A DNA stretch of 64,000 nt from a virus (taxonomy: Duplodnaviria > Heunggongvirae > Uroviricota > Caudoviricetes). Under the pieces are notes generated by a model. It was not told the DNA's origin and ran no database searches. It worked only from the letters and a program-made list of their open reading frames with translations. Location of the stretch: the IMG/VR virus record IMGVR_UViG_3300045988_005753; one strand, written 5' to 3'. Position 1 is the stretch's first letter; the number at the start of each line of letters is the position of its first letter. A program made the translations under genes and the position numbers. Of this stretch, positions 1-4,185 are shown piece by piece.

Positions 1-731
1 TCCAAGCACTTTCAGAAGAAAGCAAAGAAAGACTTCAAAAGAGAATTAATGATACCTACGCAACCTTTACAGGTTTTGTAGCTGAAGCTCGTAATATCTC
101 TGAAGAAGCTGTAAAGAATACTGAGGCGAATGTTTATTCTGCTCAGGAAGCTCTTGAACTTGGTTTAATTAACTCAATCATGTCTCAAGATGATTTCTTA
201 AATTACTTACAAGGTTCTGAAGAGGCTCCTGTAAGTTTAAACGTTAACAATTCAGGTGAAGAAATGACTGAACAAGAAAAGCAAGAACTAGAAGCTTTGC
301 GTCTTCAGGTTGCTCAAATGAAAGCTAAAGAACAGGAAGCTGCTTTGTCAGATTTGACTAATAAGATTTCTGCTTCTGCTGAAGCTTTTGGATTTGATGC
401 AAAAGAAGCTGCAACGACTATTTTAGGTGCTGGTCTTGATAACCCTCTAAGTGTTCTGTTTATGAATGCTATGGAAGGTGCTAACCAGAAACTTAATGAA
501 ACTATCGCGTCCCATGCTTCTGCAATGGAAGAAAAAGAATCAGAAATTACCAAGCTGAAAGAAACTGCTGGTGCTGTTCTTGAACATTCTAACGCTATGG
601 AAGAAGTGGGTAATGACGGCGAAGCTGATTTGGTTGAAGAAGAAAAAGAACCAGCTAAGAATGCTTCCGAAGACACCGCTGAACAACGCAAACTGGCTCT
701 CCAGAATGCTCTAAAATCTCTTATCAAATAA
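1..731 (+). CDS. prohead protease (S49/SppA-like) C-terminal part fused to a scaffold-like tail; 5' end lies outside the window
   Basis: Frame 3 is open from base 3 into ORF 180..731; translation ...NVYSAQEALELGLINSI... resembles the C-terminal motif of S49 peptidases, followed by a Glu/Lys/Ala-rich region typical of scaffolding proteins. Confidence 0.45.
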   Translation, partial: QALSEESKERLQKRINDTYATFTGFVAEARNISEEAVKNTEANVYSAQEALELGLINSIMSQDDFLNYLQGSEEAPVSLNVNNSGEEMTEQEKQELEALRLQVAQMKAKEQEAALSDLTNKISASAEAFGFDAKEAATTILGAGLDNPLSVLFMNAMEGANQKLNETIASHASAMEEKESEITKLKETAGAVLEHSNAMEEVGNDGEADLVEEEKEPAKNASEDTAEQRKLALQNALKSLIK

Positions 732-742
732 GGAACACAATA

Positions 743-1120
743 ATGGCATATCAAGGTTTTACTAAGTTAGGTAACAGAGAACCTCTGAATGATATCATTC
801 TTTGGGAACAGGTTACACCAACAGGCCACTCTCGTAAAGAGTATACCCCACAGGCATCTACAGAGTATCGTGTAGGTGAAGTTCTGAAAGCAAACGGTAC
901 TAAGGTACAAGCTGGAGAAGAATCTCAAGCAGACTCTGTATGTATCGTTAATTTCTACGCAGACCTGCAACTGTCTTACCACGGTCAGTTGAAAGTTGTT
1001 GGTATTTACCGCGACGCAGAGCTAAAAGACCTGCTAACTCTTGAATCAAGCGTTGATGCTACTGAAGTCAAGAAAGCTCTGGCTGCTAAAGGTATTGATT
1101 TCGTACCAACTGGCCTGTAA
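743..1120 (+). CDS. head decoration-like protein (positional call)
   Basis: 125 aa ORF tightly packed between the protease/scaffold and the major capsid gene, matching a lambda D-before-E gene order. Confidence 0.35.
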   Translation: MAYQGFTKLGNREPLNDIILWEQVTPTGHSRKEYTPQASTEYRVGEVLKANGTKVQAGEESQADSVCIVNFYADLQLSYHGQLKVVGIYRDAELKDLLTLESSVDATEVKKALAAKGIDFVPTGL

Positions 1121-1153: not shown

Positions 1154-2260
1154 ATGTTGACTAATTCTGAAAAAAGCAGATTTTTCCTTGCTGACCTGAC
1201 TGGTGAAGTCCAGTCTATCCCAAATACTTATGGGTATATTTCCAACTTAGGTCTGTTCCGTTCAGCACCAATCACCCAAACTACTTTCCTTATGGACTTG
1301 ACTGATTGGGATGTTAGCTTGCTTGATGCGGTAGACCGTGATAGCCGTAAAGCAGAGACTAGCGCACCTGAGCGTGTTCGTCAAATCAGCTTCCCAATGA
1401 TGTACTTCAAAGAAGTTGAAAGCATTACTCCTGATGAAATTCAGGGTGTACGTCAGCCAGGCACTGCAAACGAACTGACTACTGAAGCTGTAGTACGTGC
1501 TAAGAAGCTGATGAAGATTCGTACCAAGTTCGATATTACTCGTGAGTTCCTGTTTATGCAAGCTCTGAAGGGTAAAGTTGTTGATGCTCGTGGTACTCTG
1601 TATGCTGACCTGTACAAGCAGTTCGACGTTGAGAAGAAGACTGTTTACTTCGACCTTGACAACCCTAATGCTGACATCGACGCTTCTATTGAAGAACTGC
1701 GTATGCACATGGAAGACGAAGCTAAGACTGGCACTGTAATCAACGGTGAAGAAATTCACGTAGTTGTTGACCGCTTATTCTTCAGCAAACTGGTTAAACA
1801 CCCTAAGATTCGTGACGCTTATCTTGCACAGCAGACTCCGCTGGCTTGGCAACAGATTACTGGTTCTCTGAGAACTGGTGGTACTGACGGCGTTCAGGCT
1901 CACATGAACACTTTCTACTACGGTGGTGTTAAGTTTGTCCAGTACAACGGTAAGTTCAAAGACAAGCGTGGTAAGGTTCACACTCTGGTGAGCATTGATA
2001 GTGTAGCAGCAACTGTTGGTGTAGGTCATGCTTTCCCTAACGTTTCTATGCTGGGTGAAGCTAACAACATCTTCGAAGTGGCATATGGTCCATGCCCTAA
2101 GATGGGTTATGCAAATACACTTGGTCAGGAACTGTACGTATTCGAATACGAAAAAGACCGTGACGAAGGTATTGACTTTGAAGCTCACTCTTACATGCTG
2201 CCATACTGCACACGTCCTCAGTTGCTGGTAGACGTTCGTTCTGACGCTAAACCAGACTAA
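1154..2260 (+). CDS. major capsid protein
   Basis: 368 aa ORF directly after the protease/scaffold and decoration-like genes; size and position typical of a major capsid protein. Confidence 0.55.
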   Translation: MLTNSEKSRFFLADLTGEVQSIPNTYGYISNLGLFRSAPITQTTFLMDLTDWDVSLLDAVDRDSRKAETSAPERVRQISFPMMYFKEVESITPDEIQGVRQPGTANELTTEAVVRAKKLMKIRTKFDITREFLFMQALKGKVVDARGTLYADLYKQFDVEKKTVYFDLDNPNADIDASIEELRMHMEDEAKTGTVINGEEIHVVVDRLFFSKLVKHPKIRDAYLAQQTPLAWQQITGSLRTGGTDGVQAHMNTFYYGGVKFVQYNGKFKDKRGKVHTLVSIDSVAATVGVGHAFPNVSMLGEANNIFEVAYGPCPKMGYANTLGQELYVFEYEKDRDEGIDFEAHSYMLPYCTRPQLLVDVRSDAKPD

Positions 2261-3213: not shown

Positions 3214-3611
3214 GACTCTTAAACAGACACAGCTTTGTAGTAAAGCGTAAAGTCTCTGAAGACGGTTATTACAATGATGATGGTGATTGGGTAGCTTCAC
3301 AAGATATTGTAGAGGTTAACTGTAAAGGTAATATCCAGCCATATATCAAAGGTTCTGTAAAGAATGGTACACAGATTGCTTTACCGGAAGGTATCAGGCT
3401 TACCGATACAAGAATCCTGTATACTACATATAAACTTAGAACTTCAGATGATGTAGAGTGGAATGAGTCTGACATTGTTATGATTGATGGTCATGAGTAT
3501 GAAGTATTTATGACTATGGATTGGTCACAGCAATTAGCCCATACGTCCCATTATGAATATATCATTATTAGAAGGGATAAAATGAATGCAGTTAGAAACA
3601 GCAGAACTTGA
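3210..3611 (+). CDS. hypothetical head-tail joining protein
   Basis: 133 aa ORF, 4-nt overlap with the upstream gene. Confidence 0.4.
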   Translation: MRLLNRHSFVVKRKVSEDGYYNDDGDWVASQDIVEVNCKGNIQPYIKGSVKNGTQIALPEGIRLTDTRILYTTYKLRTSDDVEWNESDIVMIDGHEYEVFMTMDWSQQLAHTSHYEYIIIRRDKMNAVRNSRT

Positions 3612-4185
3612 AAAAGGTCTAGTTAGAACCTTAGTGGATGTTATTGGTCACAGACTAGCTCGTGATAAAAATAATAGACCAAACGTAATTAGAGCTTACC
3701 CTTCTGATAACTCAAATGACAAAGGTTTAAAACCTGACCAGCCATTTATTACCGTATATTGTCAAGATGCTGCAACACCTTATGGTTGGGTTCTTGATAA
3801 GTTTGTTGAGGATGATGTAGTTTGCTACAGAATTGCTTTTCAGATTCCTGTACTAATTACGGTGAATGGTAAAGGTGCTCACAGCATCATGCTTGAGCTT
3901 AAACAACGATTAGAGATGAGTTCAGTCAGAGATTTAATTCTTGAAGAGACAGGAGCTACAGTTCTAGACACTGGAGCTATTCCAAATGACTACACTTATC
4001 TTAATACAGATTTCGAAAATTCTGCACCTCTTGTTGTAACTCTTGTAAAAAATTCGGTCCTGAAAGATGAACGTGGAAGTATTATCGAACGTGTTATTGT
4101 GGATGGTGAATTAGTTTACGAAGAAGGACAAGAGCCACCAGAATATACTATCCATCTAGATGTAGACTCCAAAGGGGTAAAATAA
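3586..4185 (+). CDS. hypothetical tail completion protein
   Basis: 199 aa ORF immediately upstream of the sheath gene. Confidence 0.4.
   Translation: MQLETAELEKGLVRTLVDVIGHRLARDKNNRPNVIRAYPSDNSNDKGLKPDQPFITVYCQDAATPYGWVLDKFVEDDVVCYRIAFQIPVLITVNGKGAHSIMLELKQRLEMSSVRDLILEETGATVLDTGAIPNDYTYLNTDFENSAPLVVTLVKNSVLKDERGSIIERVIVDGELVYEEGQEPPEYTIHLDVDSKGVK

Follow-up and report, generated by a model that had tools for sequence, protein, structure and literature searches.

Gene content and reading frame of the locus

The window, a stretch of 64,000 nucleotides of viral DNA (IMG/VR record IMGVR_UViG_3300045988_005753), comes from a Felixounavirus, i.e. a Felix O1-like phage, and shares 97-99% identity with more than 200 Felixounavirus genomes. 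It begins inside the gene for the head-maturation protease and runs on into the genes for the head decoration and major capsid proteins (Table 1). Frame 3 stays open from base 3 up to a TAA stop codon at 729-731, which amounts to 242 codons (207-448 of the full gene) plus the stop; in phage wV8 the complete gene encodes 448 aa and begins with ATG, and the gene start lies ~618 nt upstream of the window. The preliminary description of this DNA had proposed that a protease-like part continues uninterrupted into a Glu/Lys/Ala-rich tail, and this is borne out, the open frame leading from a Peptidase_S49 match into a tail rich in Ala, Glu, Leu and Lys. A split annotation in the closest record, MET-P1-301, raised the possibility of a programmed frameshift, which was rejected because the split stems from the loss of one base in an A4 run of that record (window positions 37-40), the frame being intact in the window, in wV8 and in every other gene examined. 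Each of 60 sampled GenBank records carries only one CDS at the locus, and a scaffold is annotated in none of them (0/60).

Table 1. Features of the putative protease/scaffold locus and of the two genes that follow, with positions in the window
Feature	Positions	Strand	Basis
3′ part of head-maturation protease/scaffold gene (Felix O1 gp56, wV8 gp062)	3..731	+	Open frame; 99% identity to Felixounavirus records
Peptidase_S49 (ClpP/SppA-fold) domain, C-terminal third	6..209	+	Pfam PF01343, E=6.8e-12
Linker from protease domain to tail, LNYLQGSEEAPVSLNVNNSGEE; carries putative internal ribosome-binding site	210..263	+	Between Pfam domain end and Met294
Shine-Dalgarno-like AGGTGA	254..259	+	-8.4 kcal/mol duplex with 16S 3′ end; 4 nt upstream of ATG264
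Internal in-frame ATG (Met294), proposed nested scaffold start	264..266	+	Opposite lambda gpC Met309; +26 codons past domain end
Putative nested scaffold reading frame, 155 aa + stop	264..731	+	Composition; AlphaFold2 helices
Acidic, predicted disordered tail segment, residues 119-134, within GNDGEADLVEEEKEPAKNASEDT	618..665	+	pLDDT <50
Predicted C-terminal amphipathic helix AEQRKLALQNALKSLI	678..725	+	Model helix 139-154
Head decoration protein (beta-tulip Dec, lambda gpD position), 125 aa	743..1120	+	PDB 9ncf_J, E=3e-75
Major capsid protein, lambda gpE family, without N-terminal delta domain	1154..2260	+	Pfam PF03864, E=3e-78

The context is that of a head module, with the portal gene upstream (in wV8, where two small genes with products of 166 and 110 aa lie between portal and protease) and the decoration and gpE-family capsid genes downstream. 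The structure matched by the decoration protein, PDB 9ncf_J, is entitled 'Head stabilization/decoration protein', and in the cryo-EM structure of Bas63 Dec is present in 540 copies per T=9 capsid (PMC12609058); the Dec gene is often mis-annotated as 'tail protease'. All 368 residues of the capsid protein are held in PDB 9ncf_A, and in Felix O1 virions the capsid protein was found at 40 kDa, against 41.5 kDa predicted (PMC3185647). No scaffolding protein is named in the Felix O1 genome paper (PMC3185647) or in the structure papers on Bas63 (PMC12609058) and Sf14.

The protease domain and its alignment with lambda gpC

Within the window, residues 2-69 of the open reading frame match positions 79-147 of the 154 positions of the Pfam Peptidase_S49 profile, so that about the last 69 residues of the domain are covered. 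The full-length protein matches the profile at residues 134-275 (PF01343, E=5e-39), and its putative catalytic residues by alignment, Ser148 and Lys200, both encoded upstream of the window, are invariant among 12 homologues. By BLASTP, the protease part is 33% identical to lambda gpC (E=1e-38), and Ser148 stands opposite lambda Ser166, which is reportedly catalytic; the N-terminal S49 domain of the protein is, in other words, a homologue of gpC in which the Ser/Lys pair is kept. An alignment using the full upstream protease sequence, which the preliminary description had suggested as a check, extends to the internal start codon: the BLASTP alignment ends with 'SGEEMTEQEK' over 'SGGRMTKETQ', which sets Met294 of the 448-aa protein, encoded by ATG264, on Met309 of lambda gpC. 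The DNA at the aligned sites reads TCAGGAGGGCGAATG in lambda and TCAGGTGAAGAAATG in the window. Met309 is what we take to be the start of lambda Nu3, an assumption with which the strength of its Shine-Dalgarno (SD) sequence agrees; RefSeq annotates nu3 from Met239, and an exact-sequence look-up found both the 131-aa and the 201-aa forms of Nu3 in databases.

The proposed internal start site

An AGGTGA at the right spacing before ATG264 had been pointed out in the preliminary description as a possible internal start signal, and the site is there as described, in frame and at the junction of protease and tail, with a spacer of four nucleotides (AGAA, 260-263). AGGUGA can pair with 3′-UCCACU-5′ of the 16S rRNA tail, and counted from a canonical GGAGG the spacer of 4 nt is equivalent to about 7 nt, the optimal distance. 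The predicted duplex places ATG264 in the top 4% (17/423) of internal in-frame ATGs from the 69 long ORFs of the window, and it is stronger than at the median first-ATG gene start in the window (-6.4 kcal/mol). It is also close to the -8.5 kcal/mol of the gene's own ribosome-binding site in wV8, both being of the GGTGA type. A synonymous change from TCAGGTGAAGAA to AGCGGCGAGGAG would destroy the SD sequence. With seven in-frame ATGs in this open frame, at least one equally good SD+ATG combination would be expected by chance in ~25% of cases, so that the motif by itself is not significant; what takes the ATG264 site beyond chance is its position at the domain boundary together with its homology with the lambda site and its conservation across the family.

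The cost of opening the mRNA is predicted at 6.4 kcal/mol for the internal site versus 8.8 kcal/mol for the full-length start. Predicted costs are 5.9 and 6.0 kcal/mol at the Dec and capsid gene starts, respectively, and 8.7-13.2 kcal/mol at the other in-frame ATGs. The lower value at the internal site hints that the scaffold product may be made in larger amounts than the protease product, and the protease-to-scaffold ratio could plausibly be set translationally. No significant hairpin was predicted at the site (the fold of 205-300 gave z=0.26 versus shuffled sequences), unlike the hairpin reported upstream of the lambda scaffold start. A search of the + strand upstream of 264 gave no sigma-70-like promoter, counts being at the level of shuffled sequences, although phage late promoters may differ in type. 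A separate scaffold transcript from an internal promoter, in the style of HSV, was rejected for want of such a site.

Could a nested product begin elsewhere in the frame, for instance at ATG180 (Met266) or ATG318 (Met312)? The longest ATG-initiated ORF in the ORF list is 180-731, and a CDS is annotated from ATG180 in one GenBank record, the frameshifted MET-P1-301; ATG180, however, has no SD sequence (-2.7), is predicted to be costly to open (9.5) and falls within the S49 domain. Met312 is kept in Felixounavirus, Suspvirus and Mooglevirus, but ATG318 follows a weak SD sequence (-3.7), its opening cost is 8.7, and in the Hafnia phage Zyzzx Phe stands in its place. Both codons, as well as the later in-frame ATGs, were ruled out by SD strength, opening cost, position and conservation, and a start at any of them appears highly improbable.

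Conservation of the site in Ounavirinae

Fifteen codons at the site (aa 288-302) are invariant at the nucleotide level in eight genes from the genera Felixounavirus, Suspvirus and Mooglevirus, in which 44% of codons vary on average; AGGTGA is invariant in all eight. Since there are other invariant runs in the gene (aa 244-262, 265-278 and 359-369 in the same set), the 15-codon run can only be regarded as supporting evidence. Nucleotide variation in the linker is low within these three genera, and the linker is variable in more distant relatives. Met294 does not vary among the five Ounavirinae lineages aligned, and is kept in Zyzzx and in the Erwinia phage phiEa104 although the adjacent residues differ. 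At 46-52% protein identity, the SD+ATG arrangement is likewise retained in these two phages, as AGGT-N6-ATG in Zyzzx, where the SD sequence is weak (-3.9, rank 9), and as GAGGA-N7-ATG in phiEa104.

A family-wide SD+ATG at the protease-tail junction

The junction was then considered across S49 head proteases in general, using 95 loci that include 48 non-redundant fusions with a long tail. Tail length after the S49 domain is bimodal over the 95 loci, being either 10-41 aa or at least 95 aa. An in-frame ATG is found +12 to +52 codons past the domain end in 47 of the 48 non-redundant fusions, and the SD energy at these junction ATGs has a median of -6.4, versus -3.2 for the remaining 449 internal in-frame ATGs (p=2e-14). 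For 27 of 47 genes, against an expectation of 8.4, the internal ATG with the best SD sequence is one in the linker. Inside the linker, ATG codons score -6.4 versus -3.0 for non-ATG codons (p=2e-15), and the junction SD is therefore not an effect of linker composition. The SD+ATG at the junction is a family-wide feature of S49 protease-tail fusions.

The short-tail proteases present the complementary situation. In each of 18 cases with an E-like capsid gene downstream, a separate ORF of 120-260 aa, mostly Ala- and charge-rich, starts at or near the protease stop codon, and in 3 of the 18 it overlaps the protease 3′ end. A profile of the lambda Nu3 type matches eleven of these ORFs (E=2e-11 to 3e-4). 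Such split-gene relatives (IMG/VR loci L023, L038, L049, L074, L080 and L088, among others) have the same module of S49 protease, scaffold, decoration protein and E-like capsid protein, with the scaffold having its own start at the same place, but a stop codon parts protease from scaffold and their protease is without a scaffold domain, unlike the Felix-type protein. In sequence their scaffolds resemble Nu3 and the Felix-type tail does not: the Nu3-type HMM matched 40 other loci and no Ounavirinae gene.

These observations bear on the possibility that the full-length fusion is the sole product and acts as both scaffold and protease, as in P2 gpO, with a free tail arising only by autoproteolysis; ATG264 would then be an ordinary internal Met codon, and AGGTGA incidental to the Ser-Gly-Glu-Glu codons. 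P2 gpO indeed shows that a fusion can work without a nested product. The single CDS in the 60 GenBank records and the unexceptional statistics of the SD+ATG taken alone would fit such a scheme. It accounts poorly, however, for the strong enrichment of SD+ATG at the homologous junction in 47/48 fusions, for the separate scaffold protein encoded by split-gene relatives, for the exactness of the site across three genera with the Met kept in Zyzzx and phiEa104, and for the low predicted opening cost of the initiation region, and we consider it unlikely.

The scaffold-like tail

The product predicted from ATG264 has 155 aa, a mass of 16.7 kDa and a pI of 4.5. It is rich in Ala (16.8%), Glu (16.1%), Leu (11%) and Lys (9%) and is without Cys, Trp and Tyr. 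A single-sequence AlphaFold2 model (mean pLDDT 75.6), of which the secondary structure alone was used in view of a pTM of 0.32, predicts helices at residues 3-41, 46-55, 61-117 and 139-154. Residues 119-134, predicted to be disordered, vary more than any other part of the tail in the Ounavirinae alignment, and A139, A145, L146 and A149 are invariant across Ounavirinae. The predicted shape, in which long helices are followed by an acidic, disordered segment and then by one more helix at the C-terminus, would be as expected for scaffolding proteins, and the last helix is a candidate for the capsid-binding end of both scaffold and protease. As an in-frame C-terminal extension, the tail continues for 180 residues past the end of the S49 profile, within the ~130-200 residues looked for in a gene of the lambda C/Nu3 type. 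An elongated, helical and acidic protein that is absent from virions is indicated by the predicted helices, the pI and a Felix O1 virion proteome in which gp56 is missing (PMC3185647).

Comparisons of the tail with known scaffolds and structures were negative. No BLASTP alignment with lambda Nu3 was obtained, hhalign of Ounavirinae tails against Nu3-type tails gave a probability of 0.05%, a Nu3-homologous scaffold domain with the motif AExxRIxxILxxEEAxGRE was not found, and neither was homology to solved structures. Free-standing homologues of the Felix-type tail were not found in phage genomes either, tblastn matches being confined to Ounavirinae and always lying inside the protease gene, and the argument from gene fusion and fission is for this reason valid for the family and not for the Felix-type tail sequence. 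Protein databases contain the 155-aa product only where genes were called on short, truncated contigs, and such entries give no evidence of expression. Position, composition and predicted structure all the same point to a scaffolding role.

The tail could instead serve only in targeting or encapsidation of the protease, another protein, either one of the 166-aa and 110-aa products encoded between portal and protease or the capsid protein itself, being the scaffold. Such a division of roles would be compatible with the absence of sequence similarity between the tail and any characterised scaffold, and the small portal-protease genes are without an assigned function. Yet the two small products, gp54 and gp55, are components of the mature Felix O1 virion (PMC3185647), unlike a transient scaffold, and the capsid protein is uncleaved and has no delta domain. 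The tail itself is of scaffold size, with 155 residues of long helices versus the 10-41 aa tails of protease-only relatives, and homologues of Nu3, fused or free, occupy the same position in lambda-type relatives. On balance it seems quite improbable that the tail is not a scaffold.

A probable nested protease/scaffold gene in head assembly

What can be read directly from the sequences is how the gene is laid out, what its protease part is homologous to, and where the SD+ATG lies and how well it is kept. On this basis the gene probably encodes an S49 protease joined to a helical scaffold domain, with an internal start at 254-266 that also yields a free 16.7-kDa scaffold. The lambda-like nested protease/scaffold with a start at ATG264, as put forward in the preliminary description, finds support at the level of sequence in the alignment with lambda Met309, the 47/48 fusions, the split-gene relatives and the gene order. 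Internal initiation, the role as scaffold, the stoichiometry and the binding of the C-terminal helix to the capsid we infer as follows. Bases 3-731 are the 3′ 54% of one gene, that for the head-maturation protease of a Felix O1-like myovirus, whose full-length 448-aa product consists of an S49 serine protease, a short linker and a putative scaffolding domain of 155 residues, acidic and for the most part alpha-helical. Ribosomes would initiate also at AGGTGA-N4-ATG in the same frame, giving a free scaffolding protein identical to the protease C-terminus. Since the gpE-type capsid protein is without a delta domain and is full length in the virion, an external scaffold would be needed, and the free scaffold would co-assemble with the capsid protein into a T=9 procapsid, which a minority of full-length protease would enter by means of the C-terminal domain that it shares with the scaffold. 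Digestion of the scaffold and of the protease itself by the protease would follow, in keeping with the lack of gp56 among the proteins of the Felix O1 virion.

The nested arrangement is already known from lambda C/Nu3 and no new mechanism is revealed; the present member is unannotated in the sampled Ounavirinae records. Felix O1-like phages are widely used in typing, biocontrol and therapy against Salmonella and E. coli, and two cryo-EM virion structures were obtained for the subfamily in 2025. If the present interpretation holds, a nested 155-aa scaffold gene would close a gap in the T=9 head-assembly pathway, annotation would be corrected in more than 250 genomes, and a defined construct (capsid protein and the 155-aa product, with or without protease) would be available for in vitro procapsids. 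For metagenomic phages, the bimodal tails, the junction SD+ATG in 47/48 fusions and the split versions should be useful in annotating S49 head proteases. A 2026 preprint describes the nested arrangement in only 'a few' viruses (bioRxiv 10.64898/2026.09.13.751334), beyond which the family-wide result extends it.

More tentatively, and with doubts about as strong as our confidence or slightly stronger, the SD-ATG junction may be old and close to universal in the S49/decoration/gpE module and at the same time a boundary for the exchange of unrelated scaffold domains. If so, the junction would persist whether the scaffold is fused (47/48) or split (18 loci), and Ounavirinae would carry a non-homologous, longer helical scaffold at the exact lambda Nu3 junction, possibly in connection with a T=9 rather than a T=7 capsid.

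Comparison with other protease/scaffold systems

The closest parallel is lambda C/Nu3, which has a homologous S49 domain and the same gene order of portal, protease/scaffold, beta-tulip decoration and gpE-type capsid genes. The internal Met residues align residue for residue, with a 4-nt spacer after the SD sequence (AGGAGG in lambda) in both. There are differences: lambda Nu3 has 131 aa and the Felix-type scaffold domain 155 aa, without detectable homology between the two; the lambda capsid is T=7 and the Felix-type capsid T=9; lambda C starts with GTG and the Felix-type full-length gene with ATG; and the Felix-type phage is a virulent myovirus with two extra small genes between portal and protease.

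In HK97, the scaffold function resides in the N-terminal delta domain of the capsid protein. Some S49 proteases among the relatives belong to an arrangement of this type (L007 and L010), with protease tails of 34-41 aa and a capsid protein of 428-435 aa that matches an HK97-type profile, whereas the capsid protein here is gpE-type and has no delta domain. P2 gpO, whose protease is of a different family, resembles the present gene in combining an N-terminal protease with a C-terminal scaffolding domain in a single ORF. It differs in that the gene here has a conserved internal SD+ATG at the junction; P2 gpO is made as a single self-cleaving protein, according to a preprint summary of the P2 literature (bioRxiv 10.64898/2026.09.13.751334).

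The logic of a full-length protease accompanied by a more abundant in-frame C-terminal scaffold, the abundance being presumed here, is shared with HSV UL26/UL26.5 and HFTV1 gp17/gp17.5, whose protease folds and families are unrelated to S49. The HSV scaffold is made from a separate promoter and transcript. The HFTV1 pair was demonstrated by Ribo-seq and mass spectrometry and is made without an SD sequence (bioRxiv 10.64898/2026.09.13.751334). In contrast to both, the Felix-type gene, in which no internal sigma-70-like promoter was found, appears from its sequence to rely on an SD-driven internal start.

The protease gene and its tail

Over bases 1-2300 the window shares 97-99% identity with more than 200 Felixounavirus genomes (Felix O1-like myoviruses), the nearest being Escherichia phage MET-P1-301 (99.0%), and the frame entering from the left is, in well-annotated relatives, that of the 448-aa 'head maturation protease' gp062 of wV8, the counterpart of Felix O1 gp56, with base 3 corresponding to codon 207. 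In wV8 the terminase and portal genes come first, followed by those for two small virion proteins, the protease, a 125-aa protein and the major capsid protein. The MET-P1-301 record (PV700625.1) lacks one base of an A4 run (4037-4039), a deletion that splits the protease between a 232-aa 'capsid assembly protease C' and a 'hypothetical protein' from the ATG180 equivalent; its portal region is annotated as short ORFs only. These lesions look like homopolymer sequencing error rather than biology; since the deletion explains it, the split annotation was rejected as a biological arrangement.

The preliminary description had noted that the protease frame runs uninterrupted into a Glu/Lys/Ala-rich, scaffold-like tail and that AGGTGA precedes an internal ATG264, from which a shorter scaffold protein could be made; as an account of the sequence it holds on every point. 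The frame is open to its stop codon. Residues 2-69 of the ORF hit Pfam Peptidase_S49 in its C-terminal half (E=6.8e-12); the whole domain occupies residues 134-275 of the full-length protein (E=5e-39), and an 18-residue linker separates it from Met294, the codon of ATG264. The product from Met294 would have 155 residues (16.7 kDa, pI 4.5), with 16.8% Ala, 16.1% Glu, 11% Leu and 9% Lys and without Cys, Trp or Tyr. Because the AGGTGA motif sits 3 nt 3' of the canonical GGAGG register, its 4-nt spacer amounts to an aligned spacing of about 7 nt, which is appropriate as described. The Shine-Dalgarno (SD) duplex energy is -8.4 kcal/mol, equalled or bettered by 4% of the 423 internal in-frame ATGs in the 69 long ORFs of the window, where first-ATG gene starts have a median of -6.4. 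Seven in-frame ATGs occur in the stretch, and a comparable site would arise by chance in about one quarter of such ORFs; by itself the signal is not convincingly more than chance, and the case depends on context. A weak terminator-like hairpin within the scaffold coding region (GCTTCTGCTGAAGC then TTTTGGATTT) is probably a chance feature, such counts equalling the shuffle expectation.

Table. Features of the protease and tail region (window coordinates); opening cost is the predicted mRNA-structure cost over -15 to +12, in kcal/mol
Feature	Position	Strand	Opening cost	Remark
Open frame 3	base 3 to TAA 729-731	+		reading-frame check
A4 run	37-40			one-base deletion in MET-P1-301
AGGTGA	254-259	+		4 bases 5' of ATG264; perfect pairing with UCACCU of 16S 3' end
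Internal ATG264	264-266		6.4	Met294
Terminator-like hairpin	372-395			weak
125-aa gene	743-1120			labelled 'tail protease' in many records
Dec gene start			5.9	
Capsid gene start			6.0	
Full-length protease start (wV8)			8.8	
Other in-frame ATGs			8.7-13.2	

The proposed internal start in lambda and in Ounavirinae

Alignment of the full upstream protease, suggested earlier as a check, was possible with the 448-aa wV8 protein, which is a homologue of the lambda head protease gpC (residues 46-299, 33% identity, E=1e-38) and places Met294 on lambda Met309. Ser148 is aligned with lambda Ser166, which is reported to act as gpC's catalytic serine (Medina et al. 2010). The alignment reaches the end of the linker (SGEE-M294-TEQEK over SGGR-M309-TKETQ), and the lambda DNA at this point, TCAGGAGGGCGAATG (AGGAGG, 4 nt, ATG), has an SD energy of -10.8, the strongest of the 37 in-frame start codons in gene C. 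Presumably the 131-aa scaffolding protein Nu3 begins at Met309 (UniProt P03711, lambda literature). In RefSeq, nu3 is annotated from Met239 (201 aa; NC_001416 1133-1738, as against 1343-1738 from Met309). That codon falls within the S49 domain, its SD is poor and badly spaced (-6.9), and its opening cost is high (13.2); Met309 lies 23 codons past the domain end, as is typical of the family. Compared across the family, the 131-aa form is favoured over that of RefSeq. A 2026 preprint (bioRxiv 10.64898/2026.09.13.751334) treats nesting of the scaffold in the protease gene as established in lambda and HSV-1, and places SD sequences before both lambda starts.

When eight genes of Felixounavirus, Suspvirus and Mooglevirus are aligned by codon, 44% of codons on average vary at the nucleotide level, and the stretch of 15 codons at aa 288-302 (AAC AAT TCA GGT GAA GAA ATG ACT GAA CAA GAA AAG CAA GAA CTA) is identical throughout. 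Since further invariant runs exist in the same gene (aa 244-262, 265-278 and 359-369), this is supporting rather than decisive. Met294 is among only 26 invariant columns of the tail alignment, the tail sequence being found in Ounavirinae only; two much more remote phages, Zyzzx of Hafnia (52% identity) and phiEa104 of Erwinia (46%), keep the Met, with AGGT-N6 and GAGGA-N7 upstream, respectively, and differ in the adjoining residues.

The protease gene's own start in wV8 (GGGTGA-N6-ATG, -8.5) and the internal start (AGGTGA-N4-ATG, -8.4) use the same SD variant at equal strength. The opening costs are consistent with efficient initiation at the internal site and with more scaffold being made than protease, albeit as a soft argument; the scaffold:protease ratio, which had been supposed to be set translationally, cannot be derived from sequence. 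Neither a significant RNA hairpin around the internal start nor a sigma-70-like internal promoter was found. The other in-frame ATGs were ruled out as nested starts by SD strength, position and conservation. GGTGA is an uncommon SD variant, present at both starts in Felix-like phages (wV8 3365-3387; window 254-266), and Vibrio phage phiVP505 has GGTGAT at both, which hints that the two ribosome-binding sites may co-vary within a phage.

Fused and split genes among S49 head proteases

We collected 95 S49 head-protease loci from GenBank phages and IMG/VR and placed the protease-domain end in each with a profile from 12 homologues. Tails past the domain fall into two length classes, of 10-41 aa and of 95 aa or more, and 47 of the 48 long-tail genes (non-redundant at 70% identity) have an in-frame ATG at +12 to +52 codons from the domain end. 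The median SD energy of these linker ATGs is -6.4 kcal/mol vs -3.2 for the remaining 449 internal in-frame ATGs in those genes (p=2e-14, Mann-Whitney), and the linker ATG is the best-SD internal ATG in 27 of the 47, vs 8.4 expected were SD strength unrelated to position. The junction sites look like typical ribosome-binding sites (e.g. aaaggaggcactATG, caggagtgactATG and caaggagaaaaaatcATG). Purine-rich linker composition was ruled out as the cause, as non-ATG linker codons score -3.0 (p=2e-15), and although the position range was picked after viewing the first 12 sequences, the effect is far too large to be accounted for in this way. Some IMG/VR ORFs are unusually long, with tails of 500 aa (L048) and 329 aa (L095) or, in a 707-aa ORF (L036/L039), some ~270 additional residues ahead of the protease domain; these may represent triple fusions of protease, scaffold and capsid, as has been proposed for Pseudomonas phage MD8, or contain further domains.

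In 18 short-tail loci a gpE-type (lambda-type) capsid gene follows the protease, and all 18 have a 120-260-aa ORF, mostly Ala- and charge-rich, beginning at or near the protease stop codon (its first start codon within the protease 3' end in 3), usually with a decoration-like ORF next. A lambda-type Nu3-tail profile matches 11 of these free-standing ORFs (E=2e-11 to 3e-4) as well as the tails of 29 fused genes; fused and split ORFs thus belong to one head module, in which the scaffold either continues the protease frame and has an internal start or is cut off from it by a stop codon. The free-standing Nu3-like genes, of ~120-215 aa (L023, L026, L030, L038, L049, L068, L074, L080, L088, L093 and others) and frequently with long acidic stretches close to the N-terminus, are the split counterpart of the nested arrangement. 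Comparison of the loci argues that a free scaffold polypeptide would be a conserved requirement, with the junction ATG as its putative start. A single product, as for P2 gpO, is a less likely alternative and leaves both the conserved junction SD and ATG and the split-gene relatives unexplained. The lambda-like nested reading is supported, and translation of a 155-aa scaffolding protein quite probably does start at ATG264.

Probable scaffold role of the tail and comparison with known systems

The capsid protein is of the gpE type (PF03864, E=3e-78) without a delta domain and retains its full 368 residues in the solved capsid structure (PDB 9ncf_A); in Felix O1 virions it runs at 40 kDa vs 41.5 kDa predicted (PMC3185647). 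The T=9 capsid holds 535 copies of it and 540 of the 125-aa beta-tulip Dec protein (Bas63, PMC12609058). From these properties an external scaffold is expected, and none is named in the genome paper on Felix O1 or the papers on the Bas63 and Sf14 structures. In the proteome of Felix O1 virions, gp54, gp55 and gp57 are present and gp56 is missing (PMC3185647). A single-sequence AlphaFold2 model of the tail, used for secondary structure only (mean pLDDT 75.6, pTM 0.32), places helices over residues 3-41, 46-55 and 61-117, followed by an acidic segment without order (119-134) and a last helix (139-154). No similarity of the tail to Nu3 or to any solved structure was detectable. Several lines point to a scaffold, the tail sequence itself being uninformative. 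The adjacent 'tail protease' of RefSeq/GenBank and PHROGs (phrog_4146) is the beta-tulip head decoration protein (PDB 9ncf_J), a misannotation also noted in the Bas63 paper (PMC12609058); in the wV8 RefSeq record this gene is split into two CDS, gp063 and gp064.

None of 60 sampled records from this virulent T=9 myovirus group carries a nested scaffold annotation. The arrangement is of the already known lambda C/Nu3 kind and would here occur in this group with a non-homologous scaffold domain, the Felix-type tail occupying exactly the same place as Nu3 and, by analogy, presumably working alike.
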